56,721 bases of DNA from an uncultured Bdellovibrio sp. (lineage in GTDB: Bacteria; Bdellovibrionota; Bacteriovoracia; Bacteriovoracales; Bacteriovoracaceae), in NCBI GenBank assembly GCA_964359085.1, contig CAYHRT010000001.1:1-56721 (forward strand), given 5' to 3'. The notes under the pieces were generated by a model, which worked only from the letters and a program-made list of their open reading frames with translations, was not told where the DNA came from and did no database searches. Positions 581-54,747 of the stretch are shown here, in pieces. Numbering within the stretch: the first letter of the stretch is position 1; every line of letters begins with the position of its first letter. The translations under genes and the position numbers were made by a program.

Positions 581-769
581 GGGCCCGTCCAAGAATAACA
601 TGGACAAAATCGCGCCCAGATTTAGGTCAGATTTGAGCGCAACGATTGAGAAAAAACCGAGGCATAGCACAGCTATGTCGAGGTTTTTTCGATTGAGGCG
701 CGTTCAAAGATGGCCTGAAGATGGGATGCGAGATGTCCATGTTATTCTTGGACGGGCCCTTACACTTTC
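581..769 (+). repeat. Family-A long-hairpin intergenic element, copy 1 (189 nt)
   Basis: 581-606 is the exact reverse complement of 744-769 (26 bp). The interior folds on itself around an apical hairpin at about 657-683. It is homologous to 12318-12495. Confidence 0.9.
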
Positions 770-8916: not shown

Positions 8917-10017
8917 ATGTCCGCTGGGAGTATTAGTATTGAAGTGCCAAATTTAGGTGAATCAATCGATGAAGCAGTTATTGTCCAGTGGTTAACCAAG
9001 GAAGGTGATCCAGTTAAAAAAGGTGATGTCATTCTTGAATTGGAATCTGATAAGGCCAATGTTGAAATTCATTCCCCCGAATCTGGAATATTACACGTCA
9101 AAGCGGAAGTTGGGCGTACTGTGAAAATAGGACAGCAAGTTGGAGAAATTGGGCCCGTTTCTGAATCTTCAAATGTAAAGCCAAAGTTAGATACTAATAT
9201 TATTTCAGATAATAAATTGGCCACTCCAGAACCTAAAGCAGAAATACAAGCGAAAAAACAGTTTCTCAATGATTCCCAATGGAGCGAAGAAATTAGTCCC
9301 TTTGTTAAAACCATGGCAAAAAGATTGCTAAAAGCGCAGCAGGAGTCTGTTGCCGCGACAACTTATAATGATGTGGACATGTCAAAGATAATTTCTCTGC
9401 GAGAAAAGCTCAAGACCGAATTTCATGAGAAATATGGCGTAAAATTAGGGTTTATGCCTTTTTTCTGCGACGCTGTTGTTATGACTCTAAAAGAATTTCC
9501 AATTCTAAATGCACAAATGAATGAGCATGAAATTATCTTTAATAAAAAGGTTCATTTAGGCATTGCCATTAGTCGGGAAAAAGGTCTGGTGGTTCCCGTC
9601 ATCAATAATTCAGATGAAATGAGTTATTCCGAGTTCGAAAAAGTAATTGCACAACAAGCTGACAAGGCATCCAAAGGGAATTTGGATTTAGCAGAACTAT
9701 CTGGAGGCACATTTACAATTACTAACGGGGGAATGTTCGGGTCGTTGTTTTCAACTCCTCTCTTAAATCCTCCTCAGGTCGGCATTTTAGGCATGCATCG
9801 TATTGATTATCGTCCTGTGGCGATAAAAAATGAGAAGGAGGTATATCAACTACAAATCAGGCCAATGATGTATTTGGCGCTAACCTATGATCATCGTTTG
9901 GTTGAAGGTAAATTAGCAGTCCAATTCTTGTCACGTCTTAAAGAAAACTTAGAAAATATAGACGAAAAAAAGATTTTTCGGGAAGAAACAAAGGATCAAG
10001 CACAGGAAAAAAGTTAG
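8917..10017 (+). CDS. sucB: dihydrolipoyllysine-residue succinyltransferase (E2o), apparently lacking a peripheral-subunit-binding domain
   Basis: 366 aa, starting 4 nt after the sucA stop. Lipoyl site [10 protein letters not shown]. The catalytic domain carries [10 protein letters not shown] and YDHRLVEG (canonical motif DHRxxDG). The linker at about residues 80-125 has no GxGxxGRI-type PSBD motif. Confidence 0.9.
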
Positions 10018-10034
10018 CGCGAAAGTTCCGGGTG

Positions 10035-10072
10035 CCTGACGCTCTACCCCTGGTACCTCGCACCACAATTGC
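10035..10072 (+). repeat. imperfect direct repeat, copy 1 (cctgacgctctacccc..caccacaatt)
   Basis: Matches 11012-11050 at most positions. Cores of 16 nt and 10 nt are identical. TATAAT lies about 35 nt downstream of both copies. Confidence 0.75.
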
Positions 10073-10605: not shown

Positions 10606-10959
10606 ATGGCTACGAAGTTAAGACTTGTTACACTCATCTTGTTTTGGTGCTTGCCATGTGTTTGTTTTGCATCGTTAATTGATAAAATTGAGAAGAAGTG
10701 TGAAGCATCATCAATAGATAAAAATCAGATCGATTGCATCTACAAAGTTGGACATAACCTTGAGATAGAAGTGGTTGGTATCGGTGACTCTCAGGCATCA
10801 ATTGTTTTTAACAAGGTTAATGACAAGGACTACGTCGTTAAGTACCAGACATCACCAAAGTGCATGCTGGTCGGTTCAAGAAAATACCCTGACAACATTT
10901 TCATCTCGCCAAGAAGTGGAAAACTATTCTCAGATGTGACAGCTTGTCAGCTAAATTAA
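10606..10959 (+). CDS. small secreted hypothetical protein
   Basis: 117 aa. Signal peptide ..LPCVCFASL. aaggaaattgaATG context. Sits 14 nt after the previous gene. Confidence 0.55.
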   Translation: MATKLRLVTLILFWCLPCVCFASLIDKIEKKCEASSIDKNQIDCIYKVGHNLEIEVVGIGDSQASIVFNKVNDKDYVVKYQTSPKCMLVGSRKYPDNIFISPRSGKLFSDVTACQLN

Positions 10960-11011
10960 TTGATGGCCATTAATTTGGATAACACAATAATTGGCACGTA
11001 AGTGCAAGATA

Positions 11012-11050
11012 CCTGACGCTCTACCCCGAGTAGCAGTCACCACAATTAGC
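11012..11050 (+). repeat. imperfect direct repeat, copy 2
   Basis: See 10035-10072. Together the two copies bracket the two small secreted-protein genes. Confidence 0.75.
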
Positions 11051-11625: not shown

Positions 11626-11643
11626 GGTGAAGGAATTTTGGCA

Positions 11644-12318
11644 ATGAAAGCTAAAAATGTTACAGCGTCCTGTCATACTTGCCCAGAATGTGAAGGCCGC
11701 AATGTCAAAAGTGGCCCAATCGAACTTAAATTTGATCGCCATATCTTCAAGGCCAGAACCGAAGTCTGTAGAGATTGTGGCAACTACTTGACCTCGCCTC
11801 AATTTGAAAAAAAATTGGAGGAATGGACGAAAAATCTTGGAGCCAACTTCCACCAATATCAGCCAGCCGTTTCAAAAGAAATTTATGAAGACCTTGAAAA
11901 ACTATCTCATCAGCACGGAGTCAAGCCCGCAGTTATGGCCAAAATTATCACCACTGTCTACCTGGAACGTTCAAGAACGACTGAGGGATATGCGGCCTTG
12001 AAGAAATTTATTTTTGATTCAAACACTTTTGCCAAACTAGATAGCGGTAAAAAAGAACGAATATCGATTCCTGTTAAATACGAAATCTACAAGGAGATTC
12101 AGAACTTTGCCCAGATTTGGAATCTCAAAAGCGACACTGAGGTCTTAGCTGAGGCAATCAATTTTTGTGTTGTTCTCCTTTGCCATAGCACTGCTCTCGG
12201 CGAGGAATTCAAACTTGAAATTCGCAAAATTAAAGAATTAGCTACCGTTCGAAATAGTGCCCCTCATATCAAGAAAGTCATTGAATCTGACGTACGCTAT
12301 ATTGCAAAAGCCGCTTAG
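11644..12318 (+). CDS. YgiT/MqsA-type zinc-ribbon protein with unrelated C-terminal domain (possible antitoxin)
   Basis: ATG 11644, with gaagga upstream. N-terminus CHTCPECEG..(26 aa)..CRDCGNYL matches the CxxC..CxxC YgiT-type finger. I cannot recognise an HTH in the C-terminal part of about 160 aa. Confidence 0.6.
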   Translation: MKAKNVTASCHTCPECEGRNVKSGPIELKFDRHIFKARTEVCRDCGNYLTSPQFEKKLEEWTKNLGANFHQYQPAVSKEIYEDLEKLSHQHGVKPAVMAKIITTVYLERSRTTEGYAALKKFIFDSNTFAKLDSGKKERISIPVKYEIYKEIQNFAQIWNLKSDTEVLAEAINFCVVLLCHSTALGEEFKLEIRKIKELATVRNSAPHIKKVIESDVRYIAKAA

Positions 12319-12495
12319 GAGTCGCGCATAAATAAATGTTACAGGTCGCGCCCAGATTTTAGTTAGATTTGAACGCGAAGATTGAGAAAAATGCGAGGAA
12401 TGGCAGGGCCATTTCGCGTATTTTTCGATTGAGAAGCGTTCAAAGATGACTGAAAGATGGGATGCGAGATGTAACATTTATTTATGCGCGACTCC
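12318..12495 (+). repeat. Family-A long-hairpin intergenic element, copy 2 (178 nt)
   Basis: 12318-12343 (ggagtcgcgcataaataaatgttaca) is the exact reverse complement of 12470-12495. The interior is homologous to 607-743. The element exactly fills the gap between two convergent stop codons. Confidence 0.9.
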
Positions 12496-15400
12496 TTAGC
12501 GCGCAGTCAGACTCAAAATATTTTCATACACCACATCATCGCCATAAAAAACTTGCAGGTTGAGCTTAAACGGCTTCTTTTTGGCCTTTGCCTTAAATTG
12601 GTAAGCAAGTTTCAATGCTACTTTTTCACCTCGGCCGATGGAATCGGTATTCAATTCTGCGCGCACGATCTTGAGCAGGCTGCCTGTCTCTTCATCATGC
12701 GAGGTCAGTTTCACGCGATAACCAGATGGCACGTTATCGCGCAAACCTGTTAACACCGTTTCAACTTCATGAATGCGATACTTCCACTTAAATGGCCAAA
12801 ATCCCCAATCGCGCCACTTCGGCTTGGCCTCAAAATTGACCGCAGCACTGATACCTGGGTTTACCTTCACTACGCCTTCGTATGCAATGGGAAGGCGCAG
12901 CTCTCGGGTCACACCATCACCGGGAACAAGCACATGACCTTTTAACCAGAATTTTTCGCCTGGAACAGCATCCTCGCCGATCTGGGCGGCCAAGACATCG
13001 TGCAGTTCAATTACGTGCTGGGAAGGAAGTTCGCGCAATTCGCTGGACTGGGCCTTCATTTCTATATTGCGACTTTTTTCTGAAATTGCTAGGCGACCTA
13101 GAGTAGGAGACAGTGCCACACCACCAGCATTGTATAAATTTATCCCAAGTGCCAGCTGTGCTCCTTGAATTGGGCCTCTGGAATCGTTGGAGATGATCAA
13201 GGCACTGTTGGCGGCCATTAGACGAACAAGGGCGTGGGTGTTAGCAAAATTTTGCGCTTGCTCGCGGCCCTTGGCAAAAGCGCGCGCCTCAGCACCGGGA
13301 AGTGTTTCTGCGAAGCCAATACGCTGCCCATCCTCCTCACCTTTAGCGCGAATTTCGCGCACACCACGTGCACGCGCTTCTGCGTATACCACCACTCGCG
13401 ATTCTTCTTTGGAGACAACAAAGAGATTGTTTTTGTTTTTGATAAAGTTTTTATCAAAATTATGGCGCCATTGCCCGGGATAGTTCAGGGTGAAATTCTG
13501 CCAATGGGCCTCGGTCGCCCCTTGGTTAAAACCGCCATTGTAGGATTCTTCGCAGGCACGCAGATAATCAGCAACTTTTTTATAGACACTGCTGCAATCA
13601 CGCCCACTAACATCGATCGGAATGACACCTGCGCCTTGGTAGGCAACTCTTGTGTCAGAAAAATTCTGACGTGGATCGCGATAGCGCTCAATGTCCTGTT
13701 CTATTTTGAGAATAACCTGATTGACTGCCGAAATAATTTCTTTGGCGGCGGCGATTTCTTCCGGTGACAACTCTGTTTCATCAGTGCTCTCAAGTAATTC
13801 TTTTGTAATAATATTTTTCTCATCATTCTTATTCATTGCTAATGCTTTCAACGTACCATTGCTTAGAACTACACGTGATCTCGGAACTGCCGCCAAAATT
13901 TCTTGCATCCGTTCGGCATAACCCATCGGAACATGGGTGCGCTCCGCCTGTTCTTCGGCCTGGCGACGTCCGAGTTCAAAACCTACCGCATAAGCTTCAT
14001 CGTAATCTACCTTGGAATTTAATCCATCGGCATAACCGGTTTCATCACCGACTAATTTTCCACGCAAGAGTCCGCGCCAACGTCCATCCAACTCGGCCGC
14101 AATCAAACCATACTTGAGACCATTGAGTTCGCCTAAGCGGCGGGCCTCGGCTTCACCCAGCGGTTTGCCTTTGCCACTGCCGACCGGCCGACCTTGCTTG
14201 AATCCAAGATCGCGAGCAGCGGCGAGATATTGTTGGTAACGATTATAGCGCTCTTGATAGGCAGCAAATTTCTCCGCAGTGATGCGCTCTACCGTTTTCG
14301 CCACTTGATCAGCGTCATTAAAAATCTTTTGCAACTGCTGCAGTTCCCCTTGGAATTGCGTCAATTCGCGCTGACGGACGGCGATTAAATTTTGAAATTG
14401 AGAAATATTCGAGCGCGACTCCCGAATCAGCGTTTCAAATTCTACGATGGCCGACTCTCTTGCGGCACGCTCCTGAATCAACTCGGCCCGTAGTGTTTCC
14501 ACTTCACGGCGAACACGTTCATTTTGCTCCAGCAGCGCCAACAGGCGCGAACGTTCATTTTCCAAGGTGCGAACAGCTTGCTGAAGTTGCGCCACTTTCT
14601 GTTCGGCGCGAACGACTTGCTCACGCGCACTTTGAACTGCTGAGGCATATTGGGAGACCTGGCGCTGTAACTCACGCACCTGATTTTGCAGTTGAACTAA
14701 AAACTCGCGCAATTGACCGAGACGTACTTCCATCTGGCGGGTGCGCGCTTCCGATTGAGCGAGTGTGCGCGCCATTTCTCGTACCCGTTCCTCCGTTTGA
14801 AGAACAGCTTGGGTGGCATGCTGTGATTCCACTTCTCGCTGTTGTAAGCGTCTGCCGCTCTCCTGCACTTCCTGCGCCACGCTGTTTCTTCGTACTTCTC
14901 CTTCTCGTATATTTTGTTCTGCGCGAGTCACTTCTGCTTGCCCTCGCGCCACACTCTGCTGGGCCCGCGCGATTGCACTATTGGCCTCTGTGAGACTGCG
15001 CTCAACTTGTTGCAACTCTGCAAGCAAGGTCGGACGACGCGTCTCAAGCTCGCGCTTTTGCCCTTCAAGTTTAGCACGCTCTTGCGCCAAAGAATTCAAT
15101 TCTTGCTGAACTCCACCAAGCTGCTTATTGGCCTCTCCGTGCGCCTGCCTTTTAAGCGCCAGTGCTTCTCTTAAGCCACGTACTTCGGCCTGCAAGCGTT
15201 CATTGTCTGCCCGCAAGGCGCGAATTTTGGCCTGGACCTCGGGAGTTTGTTCTCCCTGAGATAACTCTTTAAGCAGTTCGGCGTTTCTTTTCATGGTGGC
15301 CATCAAAGGTTCCATGACATTTTGACCTAAACGAATTTCTTCCGCCAAACTTGCAATCTGTGCTTGCAGTTCTCTTTCACGCCCTTTTAACTGGCGTTCA

Positions 15401-16347
15401 TGCTCTGGCAGGCGCGCCAGGGTTTCGGCGATTTGTCGTATTTGCCCATCGAGACCCGACAGTTGTGTGTTAATATTTTGCTTTTGCCGCTCGAGTTCAC
15501 GCACCTGATTCTGGCTGGCCAGTAATTCTTGCTTCGATGTTTCCCACTGAGCGCGAGCGCGCTCTAGCGCCTCTCTTGCTGGCGCAATTTCTTGCTCAAT
15601 TTGCCTCAGGCGCGCCTCATTTTGGGCGTGCAACTGGCGCTGTTGCTGAAGCATGGCCTTAAGTTGTCGATCTTGCTCGCGCAACCCGATCAAAGTATTT
15701 TCCAGGGCACTTCGCTCACGTGCCAGTTGCTCAAGCTCGCGCAGGAGCTGCTGGCGCTCGGCAATTAGATTGGCCTCATCGCTGCGAGTTTGGCGCAACT
15801 GCCCTTCCTTTGCATGCAGCTCGCCTTGGGCCAGGGCCTCTGCCCGCTCCACCTGGCGCAGCTCTTCGCGCTCCCGTTCTAACCGCTCAATTTCCCGTTG
15901 TAGATTGAGGCCCTCTGCCTCAAGACGGGTACGGATGTCTCTTTCACTATTTTGCAAACGCCCCTGCTCCACTATTAAATTGCTTAAACGGCCCTCGGCG
16001 CGTGGGATTTCCTCTCTAAGTCGCTGAATCTGGCCGCGATGATTGGCAATTTCGTTCTCGGAGTGGGTGATGGTTTGTTGGTTTGCCTGAATCGCCTCAT
16101 GATGGGAGCGAAGTTCCCCTTGGTGATGACTGATCTGACCTTCTTTGGAGCGAACATTCGCCAGCGCCTCATTGGCATCTTCACGTTTGTCGTCCGAAAT
16201 CGCTTTGGCCGCCAAATAGCGCTGATAATAAGTATCTTTATCAATCTCATCGGGAAGGGCACCAAAGGCCTTGCCTAAGAATAGGATTGTGAGGCCCAGC
16301 ATGGCCAAAATAAAGAAATGAAAGCGCAAATTATTTATCGCCGACAT
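12496..16347 (-). CDS. very large (1283 aa) exported or membrane-anchored coiled-coil protein
   Basis: N-terminal hydrophobic anchor FHFFILAMLGLTILFLGKAFG. About 650 aa of Q/E/R/L/A-rich heptad-like sequence, then a globular C-terminal part of about 550 aa. GC-rich relative to its neighbours. Confidence 0.85.
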   Translation of the reverse strand: MSAINNLRFHFFILAMLGLTILFLGKAFGALPDEIDKDTYYQRYLAAKAISDDKREDANEALANVRSKEGQISHHQGELRSHHEAIQANQQTITHSENEIANHRGQIQRLREEIPRAEGRLSNLIVEQGRLQNSERDIRTRLEAEGLNLQREIERLEREREELRQVERAEALAQGELHAKEGQLRQTRSDEANLIAERQQLLRELEQLARERSALENTLIGLREQDRQLKAMLQQQRQLHAQNEARLRQIEQEIAPAREALERARAQWETSKQELLASQNQVRELERQKQNINTQLSGLDGQIRQIAETLARLPEHERQLKGRERELQAQIASLAEEIRLGQNVMEPLMATMKRNAELLKELSQGEQTPEVQAKIRALRADNERLQAEVRGLREALALKRQAHGEANKQLGGVQQELNSLAQERAKLEGQKRELETRRPTLLAELQQVERSLTEANSAIARAQQSVARGQAEVTRAEQNIREGEVRRNSVAQEVQESGRRLQQREVESQHATQAVLQTEERVREMARTLAQSEARTRQMEVRLGQLREFLVQLQNQVRELQRQVSQYASAVQSAREQVVRAEQKVAQLQQAVRTLENERSRLLALLEQNERVRREVETLRAELIQERAARESAIVEFETLIRESRSNISQFQNLIAVRQRELTQFQGELQQLQKIFNDADQVAKTVERITAEKFAAYQERYNRYQQYLAAARDLGFKQGRPVGSGKGKPLGEAEARRLGELNGLKYGLIAAELDGRWRGLLRGKLVGDETGYADGLNSKVDYDEAYAVGFELGRRQAEEQAERTHVPMGYAERMQEILAAVPRSRVVLSNGTLKALAMNKNDEKNIITKELLESTDETELSPEEIAAAKEIISAVNQVILKIEQDIERYRDPRQNFSDTRVAYQGAGVIPIDVSGRDCSSVYKKVADYLRACEESYNGGFNQGATEAHWQNFTLNYPGQWRHNFDKNFIKNKNNLFVVSKEESRVVVYAEARARGVREIRAKGEEDGQRIGFAETLPGAEARAFAKGREQAQNFANTHALVRLMAANSALIISNDSRGPIQGAQLALGINLYNAGGVALSPTLGRLAISEKSRNIEMKAQSSELRELPSQHVIELHDVLAAQIGEDAVPGEKFWLKGHVLVPGDGVTRELRLPIAYEGVVKVNPGISAAVNFEAKPKWRDWGFWPFKWKYRIHEVETVLTGLRDNVPSGYRVKLTSHDEETGSLLKIVRAELNTDSIGRGEKVALKLAYQFKAKAKKKPFKLNLQVFYGDDVVYENILSLTAR

Positions 16348-28732: not shown

Positions 28733-30112
28733 ATGCGATTAGTCATTATTGATGACGACCCGACCATGGGACCAACCCTCAAATCTGCTGTCGAAGATGC
28801 ACATGAAGTAACCGTATTTAGTGATCCCATTGCCGGCCTTGCTTTTTTAGAAAAGCACGCTGTCGATCTGGTAATCACCGATCAGCAAATGCCGGGCATG
28901 CAAGGAATCGATTTAATCAAAAAGGCCAAAGCCTTCTCTCCTGAAACATCGTTTATTCTCATGACTGCCTATGCCTCGGTTCAAGATGCCGTAACCGCGC
29001 TCCAAAATGGAGCTTCTGACTATATTCTCAAGCCGCTTAACCTGACTGAATTTGATCATCGTTTAAAACGCATTGAAGAACTTAGGGCCCAAGGCCGACA
29101 GATTTCTTTACGCCAGCAAAAATCCAAAGGCCTATCACGTTTGCTTGGTCATAGTGAAAATATGAGGGCGGCGAAAGAATTCGCTGCAAAAGTGGCAGAC
29201 GTACCATCCTCCATTCTCATTTTGGGCCAAACCGGAACAGGAAAAGAAGTCCTGGCGAAATCTATTCATGAATCTTCAAAGAATGCTTTCGGGCCTTTTG
29301 TGGCGATTAACTGCGCCACTCTTAGTAAAGAACTCATGGACTCTGAGTTGTTTGGCCACGAAAAAGGGTCTTTCACCGGTGCCATAGATTCTAGGCAGGG
29401 TAAATTCGAACTGGCGGAAGGCGGTACGATCTTCCTAGATGAAATTGGAGAACTCTCCTATGAGTTACAGGCAAAACTGCTGCGCGTTTTGCAGGAAAAA
29501 GAATTTTATAGAGTCGGTGGGCAAAAGAGCATTCATACTACGGCCAGAGTTATTGCGGCCACTCATCGTGACCTCCTCTCGTTGTCGAAAGAAGGCGCGT
29601 TCCGCGAAGATTTGTTTTTCCGCCTCAATGTTTTATCTTTCACTCTTCTTCCTCTATCAGCAAGGCCAGAAGATTTGAAAGCACTCATCGATTTTTTTTG
29701 GAAAGATTTGTGTATGGAACTCAAACGCTATCCAAAAATGAATGCGCAAGTTGAAAGCAAACTCATGGCCTATGATTATCCGGGCAACATTCGTGAACTC
29801 AAAAATATTTTGGAGCGACTGATCGTGCTGGGCGAAGCTAATAAAGAAGTCAGCGCTACTCTTTTGCCATTAGAAGTATCAAAAAATAACCCAACCCCCG
29901 CTCTTACCTCTTCGACAACTCAATCTCAAACCCTGACCGAAGGCAAAGGACTGAATCAATTTCTAGAAGAAATCGAGTTTCGCATCATTAAGGACATTAT
30001 GGAGCAAGAATCACACAATCAAATCAAAGCGGCCAAGCGATTGCAGCTTACGCGAGGGAGCTTACAGTACAAATTAAAAAAGATGGAAGACTTAGGACTC
30101 ATGACAAAATAA
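28733..30112 (+). CDS. sigma-54-dependent response regulator (NtrC/AtoC family)
   Basis: Receiver (DLVITDQQMPGMQG), AAA+ Walker A GQTGTGKE, GSFTGA (GAFTGA-type loop), Walker B FLDEIGEL, and a C-terminal Fis-type HTH AAKRLQLTRGSLQYKLKK. Confidence 0.92.
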   Translation: MRLVIIDDDPTMGPTLKSAVEDAHEVTVFSDPIAGLAFLEKHAVDLVITDQQMPGMQGIDLIKKAKAFSPETSFILMTAYASVQDAVTALQNGASDYILKPLNLTEFDHRLKRIEELRAQGRQISLRQQKSKGLSRLLGHSENMRAAKEFAAKVADVPSSILILGQTGTGKEVLAKSIHESSKNAFGPFVAINCATLSKELMDSELFGHEKGSFTGAIDSRQGKFELAEGGTIFLDEIGELSYELQAKLLRVLQEKEFYRVGGQKSIHTTARVIAATHRDLLSLSKEGAFREDLFFRLNVLSFTLLPLSARPEDLKALIDFFWKDLCMELKRYPKMNAQVESKLMAYDYPGNIRELKNILERLIVLGEANKEVSATLLPLEVSKNNPTPALTSSTTQSQTLTEGKGLNQFLEEIEFRIIKDIMEQESHNQIKAAKRLQLTRGSLQYKLKKMEDLGLMTK

Positions 30113-30276
30113 GGTGTGCAGATCGCGCCCAGACAAAATAAAAACAATAAGTTGCTAATCCAGAGTTTCTCACTCGGCCATCCTAAAAAAATCTTACTCT
30201 CGCCGGCCAAAACAAATGTCTATTGCATTTCGTTGGAAGTGCTTAAGGGAGCAACATATAATCGCTTGGAATTCAT

Positions 30277-30450
30277 AACCTGAGTTTGGGATTAGGGTCG
30301 TAGCGAGAAGTCGTCTGACAAAGGAGTTCAAGGACGCACAAGTGAAAAACCGGAGGCGTAGCAGAGCTACGTCGAGGATTTTGAACGCGGAGGACGCTGA
30401 AATCCTTTGTTAGGCGGCTTCGCAGTAGACCCTAATCCCAAACTCAGGTT
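30277..30450 (+). repeat. Family-B long-hairpin intergenic element, copy 1 (174 nt)
   Basis: A 23-bp perfect terminal inverted repeat, aacctgagtttgggattagggtc / gaccctaatcccaaactcaggtt. 170 of 174 nt are identical to 52741-52914. Confidence 0.92.
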
Positions 30451-30489
30451 CATAAGTTCTTTAACATCCATTTGCCTAAGGAGATTGCT

Positions 30490-31089
30490 ATGCAATTTAT
30501 TAAGTGTTTGCTCGTCGCTATGCCTTTTTTATTTACCAGCGCCTTCGCCAGTGTCGAAGGCCTGTTCCATGTTGAAAGCTCTTTTTCCTATCTCAAAGGG
30601 AGCAAGACCCTGACTGTACCTGCGGGAGATTATAAAGCAGATTTGAAGGTAAGCAATTCTTCCATGACTTTAAAATTCAGAGATCAGACCGATGAAAAGC
30701 ATAAAATAAAAATGGAAGTCCCACGCGATTCTGTGCCCTCACGCAACGGCAGCTTCCATTATGAAAGCACTCAAGTTGAGCAACCCTTTGATCTATCAGG
30801 TCAGGTGGCGACGCAAGAAGAGAGAACTCCAACCCAATCACGCTATGAGAGCTGCACTTACCAGCGCCCTGTGCAAGTTTGCACCATTGATCCCTACGGT
30901 CGTCGTATTTGTCGCGTAGAATATCAAACAGTACAGGGTAACCACCAAGTGCTGTTTCACTATCTGATTGCACTCCGATCAACACTGGTGAATCTCGAAG
31001 GTGCCACTGATCGCAATCTCTTGGGAAATTTCTCCGGTACCGAAAATATCGAACAAATTATCACCGAACATGTGGGAGCTTGCTATTAA
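30490..31089 (+). CDS. secreted hypothetical protein
   Basis: Start trimmed to ATG 30490 (aaggag 6 nt upstream). Signal peptide MQFIKCLLVAMPFLFTSAFA. Confidence 0.55.
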   Translation: MQFIKCLLVAMPFLFTSAFASVEGLFHVESSFSYLKGSKTLTVPAGDYKADLKVSNSSMTLKFRDQTDEKHKIKMEVPRDSVPSRNGSFHYESTQVEQPFDLSGQVATQEERTPTQSRYESCTYQRPVQVCTIDPYGRRICRVEYQTVQGNHQVLFHYLIALRSTLVNLEGATDRNLLGNFSGTENIEQIITEHVGACY

Positions 31090-31100
31090 GCATAATAAGT

Positions 31101-31188
31101 GAGGTACCATGACCCCTTTGGGACTCATCGCGCCACTTAGCGGCTGCGGTGAGTCCCAAAGGGGTCATGGTACCTCTCATTTTTTTTT
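31101..31188 (+). terminator. intrinsic terminator with an unusually long perfect stem
   Basis: gaggtaccatgacccctttgggactca (31101-31127) pairs perfectly with 31150-31176. A 22-nt loop, then T9 after 4 nt. Confidence 0.75.
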
Positions 31189-33118: not shown

Positions 33119-33721
33119 ATGTCGATTATAAACAAGATCTTCCATATCAGCGACGAGTCTTTAATAGAAGAGATAAAACGGCAAAGTTCGGGTGCATATT
33201 TCGAACTCTTTCATCGATACCAAAAGGGAGTTTACAACTTTGCATTATCCTATTCCCACCGCCCAGAAATTGCCGCAGAGATCACGCAAGAGTGCTTTCT
33301 GAAACTCATGACAAAGTCTGGCAGTTTTGAAAAAGGCAAGGTTTTCAGACCTTGGTTTTGGAGCTTGGTGCGCAACCAGTGCCATGATTGGTACCGCAAA
33401 GAAAAAGGGGAACGCCTTGAACCCGATACTCTGGTCTCCAATTTTCCTGCCGATAAGATCTCTGATGAAATCGCGACGGATGAAATGTTTATGAAGTTAC
33501 TACAGGAGATCCAGCGACAACAAATCTTGGAAACACTGGCGCTCTTGCACACCTCTGAAAGGGAGATTTTGCTCTTATGGTTAGAAGATCTTAGCTACCT
33601 TGAGATAGCAGAGGCGATGAGTAAGACTCAAGATGGAGTAAAAGGATTACTCAAGCGGGCCAAGCAGAAATTTGCAAATCTTTGGAAAGAGAAAAATGGG
33701 AGAGAGAAAAATGAAAAATAA
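33119..33721 (+). CDS. ECF-type RNA polymerase sigma factor
   Basis: Start trimmed to ATG 33119. Region 2 (FELFHRYQKGVYNFALSY..AEITQECFLKL) and region 4 (REILLLWLEDLSYLEIAEAMSKTQDGVKGLLKRAKQKF). Confidence 0.85.
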   Translation: MSIINKIFHISDESLIEEIKRQSSGAYFELFHRYQKGVYNFALSYSHRPEIAAEITQECFLKLMTKSGSFEKGKVFRPWFWSLVRNQCHDWYRKEKGERLEPDTLVSNFPADKISDEIATDEMFMKLLQEIQRQQILETLALLHTSEREILLLWLEDLSYLEIAEAMSKTQDGVKGLLKRAKQKFANLWKEKNGREKNEK

Positions 33722-34034
33722 AATAAAAAATAAAATATATTTTGAACCACCTAAATCGATTCAGGAAAACCTACAGAGAAAACTTTTTCCAAAGCCAACT
33801 GCCTTTCATTGGAAACGGCTCATTCCGGCCATGACAATATGCTTGTTTATCGGAGTTGTTACTTACAAATATCTCAATCGCCCTGCCCCCGAGGCATACT
33901 ATGATGAAGCCTACGTCGAATTATTTTTTGAGGCCGATGAAATGCAAGATCAGGGTATTGAGGAATTTGCCACAAATACCACGCAAGAGGATGAAGCTGC
34001 GCAAGACGAGGAATCGGCAGAGACTCTGATCTAA
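33711..34034 (+). CDS. single-pass membrane protein, candidate anti-sigma factor
   Basis: ATG 33711 overlaps the sigma-factor stop. One TM segment (LIPAMTICLFIGVVTY) and an acidic C-terminus. The call rests on position only. Confidence 0.45.
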   Translation: MKNKIKNKIYFEPPKSIQENLQRKLFPKPTAFHWKRLIPAMTICLFIGVVTYKYLNRPAPEAYYDEAYVELFFEADEMQDQGIEEFATNTTQEDEAAQDEESAETLI

Positions 34035-34049
34035 GGGCCCGTCCAAATG

Positions 34050-43983: not shown

Positions 43984-46134
43984 TCACCTTCCAAACAATT
44001 GACAGCGTGTTTGCGCCTCGCCCACTGTAGCGGCACTAGAATGCTCACGGCCTAAAACTGGTGGAATCAAATCAACACCCGCAGCTGTGCGCGAGGCCGA
44101 GAAGCGGAATTTGTCGGCCCTGGTTTCCCATTTGGTTTTAAGCGTTTGGTACGCGGTATCGGCATTGCTGGTTGGCAGCGCTCTCAATTCAGAACAAAAG
44201 GCCGCTACGGCCGTGTCTCGTATGATGTCATCACCCCCTTCCAACATAACTTCGATTCGATCAGTGATTTCTAAATTTCCAGCGGCATTTCTTTTCACTT
44301 TAAAGGTACCACCTTGATCCTCATCACCTGTACCAGTTATAGCGGTTGCAATTTCATCCATACTATCGGCCTTCGCACTGGCCTCGAAAAGCAAAGTGCC
44401 AATATGCGATTCCAGCTTGGCAATACAACTTTTATTCCAAGCTGTCAGTTTGGTCGTATAAACATCAAAAGCAGCGTTGAACGCCATTTCTGCCAAAGTA
44501 TCTGGAGGCGGATTAGGTTTATTGGCCATATTACAGGTATTTTTATATCGCTCTAACAAATTCAAGTTGCTTAAAATTCTGGCACAAAAATGCTGATCAG
44601 ACTTTTGGCCCAGACAATCCCTGATAATAGTCTCATGCAGCTCTCGGGCCCTACGAAGAGAAGACAGCACATCATCTTTGGAAAATTGGTTACAGAAATT
44701 GGCGTTAGTTCCTGTTGCGTTTTGTGGATTTTGGGTTACGTTCAGACACTGTTGGCATCCTTCACGAGTAATCTGCCCCCTCTTGCCACTACAAAGAGCA
44801 GTGCATCCATAGACATCGTCATTGTAGTGAGGATGGTTGTGCCCGGGCCCACCATCATGGCCACAGGTGTGGAGAATCTCATGAAAGATCACATCCACCA
44901 GTTTTGATTTTTCGTAATAACCCATGGGTGAAGAAAGGGGTTTGCGTGACATCCGAGTCAACATCGGATCAAGACCAGTTAAGAAAAAATCTCCCGGTTT
45001 CGCCTCCCAGGCAAATCCATTAGTAGTATTGTAAAAGGTAATGGCCGTGGTTTTGCACTCCTGTTTCTTCGCTGCGGTAGATGCATCCTTGCAAAATTGT
45101 TCTGCATAGCGATCGGCCTGTCCACTTTCACGCACATCATGCATACACAACATTTTTTTGTCACCCTGCTCAGTCTGACAAGCGTTATCAACGTCTTGCT
45201 GCTCTTGAGGTGTCATCTGCCCCATGCCATGGCCGCAGCGAATGCGTGGACGTTCGGGAATCAGCGAACGGGTCAGGCAATCGTCCACAAAACGGGGATT
45301 GATTTGTGCCAAGCAAGTAAAACGTTTTTCCGTCACTTCCCTTAGTGCCTTTTGGATATTTTCAATCTCTTGAGGGTCTGAGCAGGAGGCGGTATCAATT
45401 CTGAAGCCTGAAGGAGTGTAAATTGTCTCTCCTGTTTTACAGGTGAGCAGAGTGTAGTTTCGAGCAAAAAGCTCAGCATTACGAATCATATCAGTCTGCA
45501 AGAGGTCCTGGCAGTTGGTTAAAACCCGACCATCACCGCTGGGACGATTGGCCAGGCACTCGGCATACTCGGTCCTGACCGAGGTTCTTACGGCCGCTCG
45601 CTCTTGGGAGAGCTCCCCAACCGACTTGTAGGAATCGAGCGATAAGTGTTGCTCGCGTTTTATTTCAAGCCACTGGTCTTGGCGCAACTCAGATGTAATT
45701 ACAGTTTTGAGAAAATCCACATACCTTATATCGACCTTTCTTTTCGCTTGCGCATATTCATGATTTTCCGAAGTAATGCGATCATATCCGTCGTAGATGA
45801 TGGAGTGTTTCTCCAGCAGTTTACCGCTTTCCAACTCAGGTTGGCCGCTGGAGTAGAGCCGCATCTCCCCGCTAAAAACTTTTGGAAGATAACTGTAATG
45901 CCATTTTGACATAATAAAAGGTTGGTGCGAGTGAATCAGGGAAATGGTCTTAATGTTGAAACCATCAGAATCAAATGAGCGAATGACGTCTATTTTGCCA
46001 TCACCATCAAGGTCCACATGGGTAAGCTTGGTGGTGTTTAAAACCGCCATGCCTTCGGGAGTCAAACTCACCGCCTTCACCAACGTCGGTATTATGGCGT
46101 TTAGGATCATGAAAAAGAAAATTATTCGCCCCAC
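43984..46134 (-). CDS. large Cys-rich secreted protein with HExxH motif
   Basis: 716 aa. Signal peptide. DLDGDGKIDV calcium-loop-like segment. VIFHEILHTCGHDGGPGHNHPHY. Many Cys residues throughout. Confidence 0.65.
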   Translation of the reverse strand: MGRIIFFFMILNAIIPTLVKAVSLTPEGMAVLNTTKLTHVDLDGDGKIDVIRSFDSDGFNIKTISLIHSHQPFIMSKWHYSYLPKVFSGEMRLYSSGQPELESGKLLEKHSIIYDGYDRITSENHEYAQAKRKVDIRYVDFLKTVITSELRQDQWLEIKREQHLSLDSYKSVGELSQERAAVRTSVRTEYAECLANRPSGDGRVLTNCQDLLQTDMIRNAELFARNYTLLTCKTGETIYTPSGFRIDTASCSDPQEIENIQKALREVTEKRFTCLAQINPRFVDDCLTRSLIPERPRIRCGHGMGQMTPQEQQDVDNACQTEQGDKKMLCMHDVRESGQADRYAEQFCKDASTAAKKQECKTTAITFYNTTNGFAWEAKPGDFFLTGLDPMLTRMSRKPLSSPMGYYEKSKLVDVIFHEILHTCGHDGGPGHNHPHYNDDVYGCTALCSGKRGQITREGCQQCLNVTQNPQNATGTNANFCNQFSKDDVLSSLRRARELHETIIRDCLGQKSDQHFCARILSNLNLLERYKNTCNMANKPNPPPDTLAEMAFNAAFDVYTTKLTAWNKSCIAKLESHIGTLLFEASAKADSMDEIATAITGTGDEDQGGTFKVKRNAAGNLEITDRIEVMLEGGDDIIRDTAVAAFCSELRALPTSNADTAYQTLKTKWETRADKFRFSASRTAAGVDLIPPVLGREHSSAATVGEAQTRCQLFGR

Positions 46135-46516
46135 AGGATCTCTCCCAATAGAACTTATCGGAAAAAGGGCACCTGGTCTTTACCGCTGTAATTTCAATGG
46201 AATATGCCATAATTTATGCCTCAAGAGGGAGCAGGACAGTTGACAGGGAGAAAGGCCGGAGCACATTGGTAGGAATCAAGTTAGCATAGTTCTTATCCAT
46301 CTCTTTTTAAATCTAAAGTCGGCATGATGGCTGCTAAAAAAAGTCTCCACAGGATTAATATTTTCCAAACCGTTAATATTTATTTCTATACATATTCTTT
46401 AAGAGACATTTCTAAGTGACTCCCATCTGTTCGGCATTGTCACAACGGTTAAAGGACCTTGCATGAAAGAAGGTACCTTCCATTTTGTCCATTCCTACTT
46501 AAAAGCAGCCATGTCA

Positions 46517-46984
46517 TTAAAAACCAGGAAATTTTCTGATGCCCACAATTCTTTCGTAATAATAGCGGTTATTGACGTTATCGATGTGAATGCCGTTAGA
46601 AAAGGAGGCATGAACGAAATAGCCTTTACCAACATAAATTCCCACATGATCAACCCGCCTACTACTGGGGTTTTTCATGGAAAAGAAAATTAAATCGGCT
46701 TCGCGCACACTAGTGGGGCCAAGATAAGCCGTTAATCTAAATTGATCACCGGAAACGCGTGGCACTCCGAACCCGGCCCTGTGATAGACGAGTTGGACAA
46801 AACCCGAACAGTCAAGGCCGGTCTGAGGATTGGTGCCGCCCCAGAGATAGGGAATACTTAAATAATCCATGGTACTGCGAACAATGGCCTGTCTGGCTTC
46901 TTGGATCGTCCTTGCCGGAACGGAATCAATCCCAAAAGAAAAAATAGTTAGGACCAAGATTGTGTGAACTTTCCATTTCAACAT
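46517..46984 (-). CDS. NlpC/P60-family peptidoglycan hydrolase
   Basis: YLWGGTNPQTGLDCSGFVQLVY .. DHVGIYVGKGYFVHAS (Cys-His catalytic pattern). Signal peptide. Confidence 0.85.
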   Translation of the reverse strand: MLKWKVHTILVLTIFSFGIDSVPARTIQEARQAIVRSTMDYLSIPYLWGGTNPQTGLDCSGFVQLVYHRAGFGVPRVSGDQFRLTAYLGPTSVREADLIFFSMKNPSSRRVDHVGIYVGKGYFVHASFSNGIHIDNVNNRYYYERIVGIRKFPGF

Positions 46985-51545: not shown

Positions 51546-52679
51546 GTGTTAAATTTCGACAATTTAGGTTTATCAGAAGGCATTCTTTTAGCGATTAAGA
51601 CAAAAGGGTATAGCACCCCAACTCCTATTCAGGTCCAGGCCATCCCCCATCTCATCCAAGGACGAGACTTGCTGGGGATCGCTCAAACAGGGACGGGAAA
51701 AACCGCTGCCTTTGCGCTGCCGCTGATTGACCGTTTGACCAAAAACCGAGTGAAGGCCCGACCGGCCCGTGTGCGCGCTTTGATTCTGACGCCGACCCGC
51801 GAGTTAGCGGCCCAGATCTTGGCCAGCATCAATATCTATGCAAAAAATGCAAAGCTGAGTAACGCTGTTGTGTTCGGTGGTGTGAGTGAGCGCCCCCAAA
51901 TTATGGCCATGTCCCGGGGAGTTGATATTTTGGTCGCCACTCCCGGACGCCTGCTCGACTTAATGGAGCAAGGACACGTCCGCTTTGAACAGCTGGAAGT
52001 TTTCATTCTGGACGAAGCCGACCGCATGCTGGATATGGGCTTCATTACCGACGTCAAAAGAGTTATTCGTCAATTGCCGGCAAAAAGACAAACTCTGCTC
52101 TTCTCAGCCACTATGCCTCAAGATATTGCGTCTCTCGCCAGCACCATGCTCTACCAACCTGTGCGGGTTGAGGTGACACCTCAGTCAACCACGGTAGAAA
52201 AAGTCGAACAGAAAGTCGCCATGGTGGAAAAGGGAAATCGCCTGATGCTTCTGCGAAATATTGTGCGCCAGAATTCAAAGGGAAGTGTGTTGGTTTTTAC
52301 TCGCACTAAGCATGGCGCCGATCGGGTAGTTCGACACCTGGAGCGGGAAAAAGTGGTGGCCATGGCCATTCACGGAAATAAATCCCAAAACGCCCGCGAG
52401 CGCGCTCTGCAAAGTTTTCGCTCTGGAAAAATTCAAGTGCTGGTTGCCACTGATATCGCCGCACGCGGTATTGATGTGCCAGGAGTTGGCCACGTCATCA
52501 ATTATGACCTGCCCGAAGATCCTGAAAGTTATGTCCATCGTATAGGGCGAACGGCCCGGGCCGGACTCGGAGGTGTAGCCATTTCCTTCTGTGACAATAG
52601 CGAATTACATCTTCTGCGCGCGGTAGAACGTTTAATCAAACGCAAGGTTCCTGTGGATACTAGTCTTCAGCACCGTTAA
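51546..52679 (+). CDS. rhlE: DEAD-box ATP-dependent RNA helicase (RhlE-like)
   Basis: GTG start. Q-motif GYSTPTPIQ, AQTGTGKT, PTRELA, DEAD, SAT and HRIGRTARAG. Confidence 0.92.
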   Translation: MLNFDNLGLSEGILLAIKTKGYSTPTPIQVQAIPHLIQGRDLLGIAQTGTGKTAAFALPLIDRLTKNRVKARPARVRALILTPTRELAAQILASINIYAKNAKLSNAVVFGGVSERPQIMAMSRGVDILVATPGRLLDLMEQGHVRFEQLEVFILDEADRMLDMGFITDVKRVIRQLPAKRQTLLFSATMPQDIASLASTMLYQPVRVEVTPQSTTVEKVEQKVAMVEKGNRLMLLRNIVRQNSKGSVLVFTRTKHGADRVVRHLEREKVVAMAIHGNKSQNARERALQSFRSGKIQVLVATDIAARGIDVPGVGHVINYDLPEDPESYVHRIGRTARAGLGGVAISFCDNSELHLLRAVERLIKRKVPVDTSLQHR

Positions 52680-52740
52680 AAGTCATTCCATCCGATTTCC
52701 TTTACTACTTTACAAGATAAGTCAGATAACTTAGCGTTTT

Positions 52741-52914
52741 AACCTGAGTTTGGAATTAGGGTCGTAGCGAGAAGTCGTCTGACAAAGGAGTTCAAGGACG
52801 CACAAGTGAAAAACCGGAGGCGTAGCAGAGCTACGTCGAGGATTTTGAACGCGGAGGACGCTGAAATCCTTTGTCAGGCGGCTTCGCAGTAGACCCTAAT
52901 TTCAAACTCAGGTT
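52741..52914 (+). repeat. Family-B long-hairpin intergenic element, copy 2 (174 nt)
   Basis: Differs from 30277-30450 at only 4 positions (52754, 52875, 52901, 52902), all of them in paired positions. Confidence 0.92.
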
Positions 52915-52935
52915 TTCAGGGCGCTACACATCTCA

Positions 52936-53715
52936 ATGGAGGTTCTTGTGTCAAAATCTGTCTTAGGAATGGGAATGGCCAGTTGGCTCCTCATGCTACT
53001 CATGTCGGTGATCATTTTTTCGGCATGCGCTCAAACAGATACGACAGACAGGACAAATGCGAATGATAGCAATTTGATTGCTGAAGAGGATATGCGAAAG
53101 ATACCAGACCTCTTACCCACCACCTATTATTTGGCCTATGAAACTCGCACCTCCTGCAAAGGGATGTACCGAGGCGTGGATTATAAGGGTGATGAGTTGA
53201 GTGAGGTGCTGACTCCTGCCAACGAGGTTTTGGCCCAAGTGTGCACTCGTTTTTTACAGGTTCTCAAGATGGAAGGTAGTGGTGTTCTGAAAGATCGAGG
53301 CCAGGGGCCCGTCACCATCAATTGGGCGGGGAATGGTCGTTTTCGCGTGCTTGACCGCTGTACATATGGCGAAGGCACCAAAGATTATTGCCTCCTTCCC
53401 TTCTATACCATCGCCGCAGATTTGAAGGTGCATAAACCAGGTGAAATACTTTACGTTCCTACCGCAAAAGGCCTCAAACTACCCGATGGAACCACTCACC
53501 TAGGTTTTTTTGAAGTGCGTGATACGGGCAGTGCCTTCGTGGGTATCGGTGCCCAACGAGTAGATTTATTTGTGGCCGAACAAGATGATAGCGATAACGT
53601 CTTTCGTGAGGCCGGGATGAACCACAAAACACCCCTGCCGGCCTTTAAAGTCACCGGGGAGTCTGCGATGCGCGCTCAGGTCTTATTAAAAGAAAAATTT
53701 AAAAATTTGTACTGA
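52936..53715 (+). CDS. 3D-domain (MltA-like) lipoprotein
   Basis: Lipobox IIFSAC. TIAADLKVHKPGEILYVP .. VRDTGSAFVGIGAQRVDLFV matches the three-Asp 3D-domain pattern. Confidence 0.65.
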   Translation: MEVLVSKSVLGMGMASWLLMLLMSVIIFSACAQTDTTDRTNANDSNLIAEEDMRKIPDLLPTTYYLAYETRTSCKGMYRGVDYKGDELSEVLTPANEVLAQVCTRFLQVLKMEGSGVLKDRGQGPVTINWAGNGRFRVLDRCTYGEGTKDYCLLPFYTIAADLKVHKPGEILYVPTAKGLKLPDGTTHLGFFEVRDTGSAFVGIGAQRVDLFVAEQDDSDNVFREAGMNHKTPLPAFKVTGESAMRAQVLLKEKFKNLY

Positions 53716-53745
53716 ATTTTCCCACTAGGCCTACAATAAGAGAAT

Positions 53746-54747
53746 ATGGGCCGAAAGAAACTTCTTACCATTGTGAATCCTGACCATTCTCCTCCGGCCT
53801 CTTCAGGAGCATGGCAAAGGGCCTACGAATTTGAATTCGAATTTTTCAGAAACTTTCCCTCGGCCCATACTCGCATTTCCTATAAAAACGATATCCGCCA
53901 ATTTATTGATTGGCTCAAAGACAATATGCCCGATTTGGAGGGCCTCAATCAGGCCTCTCGCGCTCATTTAGTGGCGTATAGGAATTGGCTGCATGAGGCC
54001 GATTTCGCTCCCAAGACTATCAATCGAAAATTTTCGGCCCTCTCCAGCTTTTTTGATTTTTTGGTGGAGAAAGGTATTAAGGACTTTAACCCCATCAACA
54101 GTATTCGCAGACCGCGCCAAGAAGTAATCCATCACACCAACGATTTGAGTGACGATCAGGTCAAAGAACTCTTCCTGGCCTTGGAACAAGAGGGCCCTTC
54201 CATGCCTCTCCACAAGGCCATCGTCTACCTACTCTTCTCTACCGGCATTCGTAAGTCTGAGTTAATTTATTTAAAACGCAAGGACTATAAAATTTTTGAA
54301 GGTGTTCCTATCATCGAAGTGCGCGCCAAGGGAGGAAAATTCTTAACCAAGGCCCTCCACCCTAAATGTGCGGGCATTATGGATGAGTATCTCGAATGGA
54401 TGAAAGATTCTGATCGCGCAATCCATCCCGAAGATTATTTTTTTCAACCCACCAAAAATCCACTCCAACCGGGAGAACTGTGCCGTCCACTCAACGCTAA
54501 ATCGGTAGACTACATCATCAAAAAGTTCGCCAAAATTGCCGGACTCACCCATCGCATTTCGGCCCATTCAGCGCGCGCCAGTTACATTGGCTCGGCCCTG
54601 GAGGCCGGCGTCGACCTGCTCAAAGTCTCCAGCGATGTGGGCCACGCCTCGGTCAGAACCACCCAGGAATACAACAAGCGACGACTCAAGATTAAGGAAA
54701 GCCCCGCCTACGATTTGGGTTATTTTGATAAGAAGAAATCTTCGTAA
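53746..54747 (+). CDS. tyrosine recombinase/integrase (XerC/D-like fold)
   Basis: N-terminal SAM-like core-binding domain. Catalytic pattern ..TGIRKSEL.. HSARASYIG .. GHASVRTTQEY (R..HxxR..H..Y). Confidence 0.85.
   Translation: MGRKKLLTIVNPDHSPPASSGAWQRAYEFEFEFFRNFPSAHTRISYKNDIRQFIDWLKDNMPDLEGLNQASRAHLVAYRNWLHEADFAPKTINRKFSALSSFFDFLVEKGIKDFNPINSIRRPRQEVIHHTNDLSDDQVKELFLALEQEGPSMPLHKAIVYLLFSTGIRKSELIYLKRKDYKIFEGVPIIEVRAKGGKFLTKALHPKCAGIMDEYLEWMKDSDRAIHPEDYFFQPTKNPLQPGELCRPLNAKSVDYIIKKFAKIAGLTHRISAHSARASYIGSALEAGVDLLKVSSDVGHASVRTTQEYNKRRLKIKESPAYDLGYFDKKKSS

Follow-up and report, generated by a model that had tools for sequence, protein, structure and literature searches.

A layered hairpin MITE family from Bdellovibrionota with signs of structural selection on the plus strand

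Two copies of a 174-nt repeat, B1 (30277-30450) and B2 (52741-52914), lie in the 56.7-kb stretch of uncultured Bdellovibrio DNA analyzed here (the window), and over the 174 nt compared they are 98% identical, with four differences and no others by alignment and RNAalifold. All four differences fall in positions that pair when the plus strand is folded, which raises the question of what has kept the two arms complementary: chance, a process acting on the DNA, or selection on a single-stranded molecule made from it. The coordinates of B and of the related elements are collected in Table 1.

Table 1 Features of family B and related elements in the window.
Feature	Coordinates	Strand	Basis	Details
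B2 element proper	52742-52913	+	blastn against L023; hairpin fold	172 bp, ACCTGAG...CTCAGGT
B1 element proper	30278-30449	+	sequence comparison with B2	second copy
B2 outer terminal inverted repeat, left	52742-52755	+		14 nt, ACCTGAGTTTGGAA; holds position 14
B2 outer terminal inverted repeat, right	52900-52913	+		14 nt, TTTCAAACTCAGGT; holds positions 161-162
B2 inner core	52756-52899	+	sequence comparison	TTAGGGTC...GACCCTAA; holds position 135
B2 apex module	52803-52853	+	pattern, RNAalifold, covariance model	51 nt; stem-loop 52819-52837
B1 apex module	30339-30389	+	pattern, covariance model	
Element position 14	52754			G in B1, A in B2
Element position 135	52875			T in B1, C in B2
Element positions 161-162	52901-52902			CC in B1, TT in B2
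B2 target duplication, left	52737-52741		L023 alignment	TTTTA
B2 target duplication, right	52914-52918		L023 alignment	now TTTCA (one change)
B1 target duplication, left	30273-30277		read from sequence	TCATA, same as 30450-30454
B1 target duplication, right	30450-30454		read from sequence	TCATA
Promoter-like block before B2	52709-52737	+	relatives' alignments	TTTACA-17 nt-TAGCGT, ends 4 nt before B2
Promoter-like site before B1	30233-30262	+	consensus scan	TTGGAA-18-TATAAT, ends 15 nt before B1
A1, related hairpin element	581-759	+		TTA flanks 578-580, 760-762
A2, related hairpin element	12318-12495	+		TTA flanks 12315-12317, 12496-12498
Family A tandem G.A loop region	618-733 (A1); 12355-12470 (A2)			

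The MFE fold of the B2 plus strand joins 67 pairs into a single hairpin (-95.6 kcal/mol, z = -11.6), and the minus strand reaches -74.7 kcal/mol. In this fold, pair 14-161 is G-C in B1 and A-U in B2, a compensated double change; pair 13-162 goes from G-C in B1 to G.U in B2, and pair 41-135 is G.U in B1 and G-C in B2. The count is therefore one compensated pair, two wobble changes, and no broken plus-strand pair in either copy. On the minus strand, G13.U162 of B2 and G41.U135 of B1 become A.C mismatches. The original prediction had placed the differences at 14, 135, and 161-162 in paired positions, read 14-161 as compensated, 13-162 as moving to a wobble and 135 as moving from a wobble to G-C, and stated that plus-strand pairing is never disrupted and that two of the states would be unpaired on the minus strand; the alignment, the plus-strand MFE fold, and RNAalifold reproduce this account exactly.

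To estimate what chance would give, substitutions were drawn by Monte Carlo on the B1 fold. As 134 of the 174 positions (77%) are paired there, all four changes fall in pairs in 35% of the draws, and this aspect alone is unremarkable. All four paired with none broken occurred in 3.0% of the draws with transitions only and in 0.6% at a ts:tv of 2:1; none broken with at least one doubly compensated pair occurred in 0.4% and 0.1%, respectively. The pattern thus exceeds chance in these simulations, yet it is small, as it comprises three to four events and the test was picked after the data had been seen; the caution of the original prediction that four substitutions are statistically weak was well placed, with simulated frequencies of 0.1-3%. 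That four neutral differences kept the pairing by accident is hardly credible: the few substitutions (n = 4) and the 35% expectation speak for it, but only 0.1-0.4% of the simulations combine intact pairing with a compensated pair, and a like pattern is found in family A, in the apex, and in metagenome copies, as described below.

B2 is absent from a relative, contig L023 from another groundwater assembly, that is 94% identical to the window on both sides of the element. By blastn, L023 1-697 corresponds to window 52045-52741 and L023 693-2160 to window 52914-54369, and the single TTTTA of L023 (693-697) aligns to both sides of B2. The five bases common to both matches mean that TTTTA was duplicated around a 172-bp insert at 52742-52913, and the interval 52741-52914 is B2 plus one base of the target duplication on each side. 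The site is also short and empty in three further relatives (L004, L005, and L006, 79-82% amino-acid identity). Another candidate relative, L021, picked up through a 55-aa cluster member, was unrelated to the window and was set aside.

Elsewhere, a full B copy in wastewater run X17 is flanked by TAAAA/TAACA (4/5 match), and the flanks in run X19 are ACATA/ACATA (5/5 match). In many runs, contigs end exactly at the B termini and are followed by differing flanks, and collapsed contigs of the B core have a depth of several to roughly ten times single-copy. B words are present in 22 of the 23 listed metagenome runs, the element is multi-copy in more than 20 metagenome runs, and DNA of the window was also found in groundwater metagenomes. 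The names of homologous genes assign the contig to Bdellovibrionota. B1 has 23 perfect terminal pairs. Internal ORFs do not exceed 31 aa, and a search with the translated B frames as protein gave no protein match and no further B copies. Small, non-coding, bounded by terminal inverted repeats and a fixed 5-bp duplication, dispersed in several copies, and present or absent between relatives, B is a MITE; the original prediction had recognized neither its mobile nature nor the duplication. As an annotation matter, assembly breaks of this lineage at element sites are explained by the elements. With its empty site, exact duplication, and layered build, B provides a well-delimited MITE family from Bdellovibrionota, and a literature search on MITEs in Bdellovibrio found nothing related.

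No transposase gene was found within the 56.7-kb window, and B would be moved by a transposase encoded elsewhere that makes 5-bp staggered cuts. A 5-bp target duplication argues for a DDE-type transposase that works on double-stranded DNA, and such an enzyme requires the element ends only. It would leave covariation along the whole stem, purine loops on one strand, and an invariant G.U unexplained.

By sequence comparison, B is a composite of B-specific outer repeats, a core akin to those of families A and C, and a common apex at the tip. The outer 14-nt modules, ACCTGAGTTTGGGA and TCCCAAACTCAGGT, are particular to B, and in solo copies of the B outer repeat (1721-1735 and 1820-1833) the likeness ends exactly at the inner edge of the module. 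The ends of the B core resemble those of A1 (TTAGGGCCCGTC...GACGGGCCCTTA) and A2 (TTAGGAGTC...GACTCCTTA) and also those of C1, on metagenome contig L003. The two solo repeats occur in exchanged order (TCCCGAACTCAGGTT ... AACCTGAGTTTGGA), are separated by an AT-rich spacer of 84 nt, and together form a 15-bp stem, in a region that is single-copy in four runs; the right one supplies a GGAG 8 nt before the ATG at 1842. In run X5, AAACTTGAGTTTGGTATA, which nearly matches the B terminal repeat, stands before a B copy, suggesting that this copy inserted beside or within another such element.

The apex consists, in order, of an A-tract, GAGG, an 8-bp covarying stem with an invariant G.U, a 3-nt loop, UCG, and a U-tract. 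The pattern AAAAA-N3-GAGG-NNTRGC-ASR-GCYANN-TCG has four matches in the window, all on the plus strand, where none is expected, and the apex covariance model R1 gives 66-71 bits on the plus strand vs 17-22 bits on the minus strand. When A1, A2, B, and C1 were folded together with RNAalifold, three of the eight stem pairs (4 of the 14 predicted pairs) covaried and one G.U was invariant. The covariance model run on the window and on the loci of all fetched relatives found the known copies only; scans with the pattern gave two matches in the genome collection, both by chance, none in the viral collection, and one true relative, C1 on L003, in the metagenome collection. Contigs of other runs match the apex alone and then continue into unrelated purine-rich flanks, which indicates that the apex is common to more families and populations. 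GGA (CsrA-type) motifs numbered 7 in B vs 4.5 ± 1.8 in shuffles, which is not significant.

We then compared the two strands across the five elements read as full sequence (two B, two A, and one C). The plus strand, on which the apex reads AAAAA...GAGG, folds better as RNA in all five, by 15-28 kcal/mol (plus/minus MFE of -122.5/-94.8, -117.4/-91.9, -98.7/-77.6, -95.6/-74.7, and -74.4/-59.5 kcal/mol), and the consensus fold of family A gives -105.3 on the plus vs -70.9 on the minus strand. Oppositions within the stems were counted by aligning the 5' arm of each element to the reverse complement of its 3' arm. Purine-purine oppositions numbered 13 in A1, 15 in A2, 14 in B, and 14 in C1, pyrimidine-pyrimidine oppositions 1, 3, 0, and 1, and the non-redundant ratio is 41:2 (binomial p = 2e-10). 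Wobbles that pair on the plus strand outnumber A.C oppositions 4:0 in A1, 4:0 in A2, and 3:2 in C1. In B, however, there are 4 G.T vs 5 A.C overall and 3:0 only inside its two long helices, so wobble counts alone pick no strand in B.

With DNA energy parameters, the plus strand again folds better (B2, -52.0 vs -42.5; A1, -64.1 vs -55.8), in the same direction with smaller gaps, so single-stranded DNA could in principle be the selected form. To our knowledge, transposition by Y1 HUH enzymes (IS200/IS605, REP/RAYT) leaves no target duplication, and this bears on an improbable alternative in which B is a single-stranded DNA hairpin moved by such an enzyme, REPIN/RAYT-like or IS200/IS605-derived, with the plus strand as the active one. 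The persistence of the asymmetry with DNA parameters and the location of all four apex copies of the window on one strand would fit it, and REPINs, extragenic hairpin-forming mobile repeats, frequently show compensatory changes (PMC3116915). A more distant relative, L013, moreover carries a Y1_Tnp gene with its own REP/REPIN. However, an exact 5-bp target duplication surrounds B2, the copies share no conserved tetra- or pentanucleotide target on their 5' side, the 56.7-kb window contains no Y1 HUH (RAYT) gene, and the REP of L013 is unrelated in sequence. REPINs also combine conserved ends with a variable spacer, lack a target duplication, and are linked to a RAYT gene, whereas B has a conserved apex and a 5-bp duplication; B does not match REPIN/REP-RAYT insertions in this last respect. 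On L013 itself (10762-10829 and 11948-12562), the RAYT-like Y1_Tnp gene has a REP copy at its side and a 68-nt REP doublet hairpin 1.1 kb from it; this is an ordinary REPIN/RAYT system, with no sequence relation to A or B.

Family A provides the larger set of compensatory changes. A1 and A2 are 77% identical, and among their 66 consensus pairs, 13 are doubly compensated, 4 changed on one side via G.U, and none is broken, so that the original prediction was right that family A points the same way as B. This covariation includes transversions (CG to GC, AU to UA). Family A also has 2x2 internal loops of AGAU opposite AGAU (tandem G.A) every 11 nt, between 9-bp helices, and these loops are kept in both A1 and A2, whereas the intervening helices covary. 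Among the other A-like copies, no variant is listed at the G.A positions 709-710 and 720-721, while the neighboring positions 713, 716, and 717 vary; the outer stems of the A-like copies on metagenome contigs are highly variable.

AGAT occurs five to six times on the plus strand of family A and never on the minus strand, with an 11-nt spacing in both arms. These counts could be read as a DNA-level protein-binding array of AGAT/CGAT direct repeats 11 bp apart, to which the hairpin would be incidental. We consider this very improbable, as B contains no AGAT, the sequences between the motifs covary as base pairs, and the changes between B1 and B2 would be left unexplained.

A few partial or neighboring A sequences meet gene ends. 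The TTA flanks of A2 share bases with the stop codons of the two convergent genes (TAG of 11638-12318 and TAA of 12496-16347), so both reading frames stayed closed after the insertion. The sigma-54 activator gene takes its final codons and its stop (30110-30112) from a truncated left arm of an A-like element, TTAGGACTCATGACAAAATAAGGTGTGCAGATCGCGCCCAGA, at 30092-30133; a complete A-like copy with the same outer arm as this fragment is present in run X3. A solo 15-nt A1 terminus, TAAGGGCCCGTCCAA, lies at 34032-34046, and its TAA is the stop of ORF 33672-34034.

Copies beyond the five full sequences were known from difference tables, in which positions 1-30 and 145-174 are invisible, a difference is listed only if some contig shows it at least 31 nt from the end of the aligned piece, and the two arms can usually not be linked. 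In the majority sequence of run X19, 45 A>G in the left arm and 131 T>C in the right arm convert pair 45-131 from A-U to G-C, and a second X19 copy carries C36>U and C139>U, two wobbles that pair on the plus strand only. Runs X1/X2 contain a left arm with 35 T>G and 37 G>A and a right arm with 141 G>C and 139 C>T. The two sets complement each other at pairs 35-141 and 37-139, provided that the arms are linked, as we infer. Conversely, unless the unseen opposite arm has changed as well, the variants 40 T>C, 46 A>C, 133 G>A, and 134 T>C would disrupt plus-strand pairing, and pairs are clearly lost in one 94%-identical B copy (92 T>C, 122 T>C, and 124 A>T). Some B copies thus decay, as copies of bcr1 are reported to do (PMC3184786).

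The main rival is a palindromic MITE maintained purely at the DNA level, its arms kept complementary by templated correction between the arms of the quasi-palindrome, by parallel mutation where both arms have an identical sequence context, or by the requirement that the two ends suit a single transposase, and any transcript without selected function. B is indeed a transposon, bounded by inverted repeats and a target duplication, and pair 14-161 sits within those repeats, where the same change could arise in both repeats at the DNA level. In addition, when each arm is read from its own terminus, changes 14, 161, and 162 are all of the G>A type and lie in the GGG run, which makes parallel mutation a real concern for this pair, and the decay of some copies is also in line with this explanation. 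Several observations argue against it. Correction between arms would erase mismatches, yet the A1/A2 loops are conserved amid covarying helices; a strand-symmetric process does not predict 41:2 purine-purine oppositions on one strand; the G.U is invariant in the apex of all families; the outer stems of the A-like copies vary to an extent unlike a transposase binding site; and the transversion covariation between A1 and A2 goes beyond mutation hotspots. We therefore regard maintenance at the DNA level as possible but not favored.

Covariation along the whole stem, purine loops on one strand, and the invariant G.U favor selection on a plus-strand transcript. Beyond the demonstrated mobility, target duplication, layering, covariation, and strand asymmetry, we propose, with a probability of roughly 55%, that B belongs to a new MITE family in which the single-stranded form of the plus strand, probably RNA made from adjacent promoters, is under structural selection. 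Nearly all of B folds as a single hairpin, with covarying stems, tolerance of G.U pairs, and internal loops maintained as purine-purine. For a mobile repeat, the 41:2 ratio of the purine loops, the invariant G.U, and the 11-nt loops form an unusually clear strand-specific signal.

The surroundings of both B copies are compatible with transcription of the plus strand. B1 lies between co-directional plus-strand genes for a sigma-54 activator and a 205-aa protein, and B2 between co-directional plus-strand genes for a DEAD-box helicase and a 3D-domain protein. The promoter-like block upstream of B2 is conserved in relatives without B2 and did not pass the consensus promoter scan. If this block and the site upstream of B1 are promoters, B1 and B2 would be plus-strand leaders, and the selected molecule would most likely be RNA started just upstream of each. 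Not every copy is evidently co-transcribed: A1 is flanked by divergent genes, and C1 adjoins the start of a gene on the opposite strand. The genes around A2 are convergent. The RNA could form a cis-acting, rod-like structure in leaders or intergenic transcripts and might serve in transcript stabilization, as a processing site, or as a partial terminator. The U-tract past the apex might end transcripts ahead of the 3' arm; it begins about 4-7 nt past the stem and pairs with the upstream A-tract. An intrinsic (rho-independent) terminator was rejected as an identity, since the terminator scan of the B1 and B2 regions found no terminator-like site and the U-tract does not directly follow the hairpin. 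If B is transcribed as proposed, these elements would amount to a natural collection of portable RNA hairpins beside promoters, with which the effects of mobile DNA on mRNA stability or termination in predatory bacteria could be studied.

A more far-reaching version of this RNA reading, which we put forward tentatively, is that the apex and the periodic AGAU-loop helices form a dedicated mobile RNA module, spread by different transposon shells and recognized by a protein or acting as an sRNA or scaffold. The traits behind it are the GAGG motifs that flank the apex stem, the paired A- and U-tracts, and the recurrence of the apex in many further families and several groundwater populations. The apex would then be a mobile RNA device and not a by-product of transposon ends.

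Several known systems resemble B. The bcr1 element of the Bacillus cereus group is about 155 bp long, has 5-bp direct repeats, is transcribed, has a non-conserved genomic distribution, and shows compensatory changes that keep the structure at the RNA level (PMC3184786). B shares its size class, the 5-bp duplication, the presence or absence between relatives, and the compensatory changes, but the transcription of B is predicted, and B is a layered composite with an apex common to other families. The resemblance, between different phyla, is one of function and architecture only. Correia/nemis elements of Neisseria and ERIC elements of Enterobacteria are small mobile inverted repeats whose transcripts form long hairpins and affect mRNA via RNase III or RNase E, depending on orientation (PMC10969869). 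Correia, however, duplicates TA instead of 5 bp, and only its terminal repeats pair, whereas pairing extends over nearly the whole of B; neither an IHF site nor a promoter was identified inside B. SPRITE of Streptococcus pneumoniae is a terminator-like mobile repeat, and SPRITE, BOX, and RUP insert into one another (PMC10969869). The A-tract/hairpin/U-tract apex and nested build of B recall these elements, but organisms and sequences are unrelated and the B apex fails a simple terminator scan. B thus joins a known kind of hairpin mobile repeat, among which its shared apex and periodic loops are unusual traits.

Other identities were rejected. No Rfam family reached the gathering threshold in the window, and relaxing the cutoff to E = 10 added only one hit, to a plant miRNA hairpin model at 16 bits; a plasmid BLAST gave no match. 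Integron attC sites do not fit, as the B copies lie 22 kb apart among ordinary genes with no cassette array and the B ends do not match the RYYYAAC / GTTRRRY core sites. The tyrosine recombinase gene at 53746-54747 has conserved counterparts in relatives that lack B2. Retron and ribozyme-like readings were set aside, with no reverse transcriptase at the copies and no Rfam match.

The window holds some further features of note. Right after ORF 30472-31089, a hairpin with a 38-bp stem (31094-31183, 89% complementary) is followed by T10; it is terminator-like and unrelated to A or B. A contig of the same species (L022), 96% identical, lacks a 2.5-kb piece (43984-46519) that holds a 716-aa ORF (43984-46134) with no Pfam match. 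The minus-strand ORF at 12496-16347 (1283 aa) has no Pfam match either, and its G+C of 0.50 is higher than that of its surroundings. Finally, two 62-nt direct repeats, 74% identical and sharing the core ACCTGACGCTCTACCCC, lie 977 nt apart (10009-10070 and 10986-11047) and enclose a segment of low G+C (0.39) with two small ORFs, which might be a small insertion.
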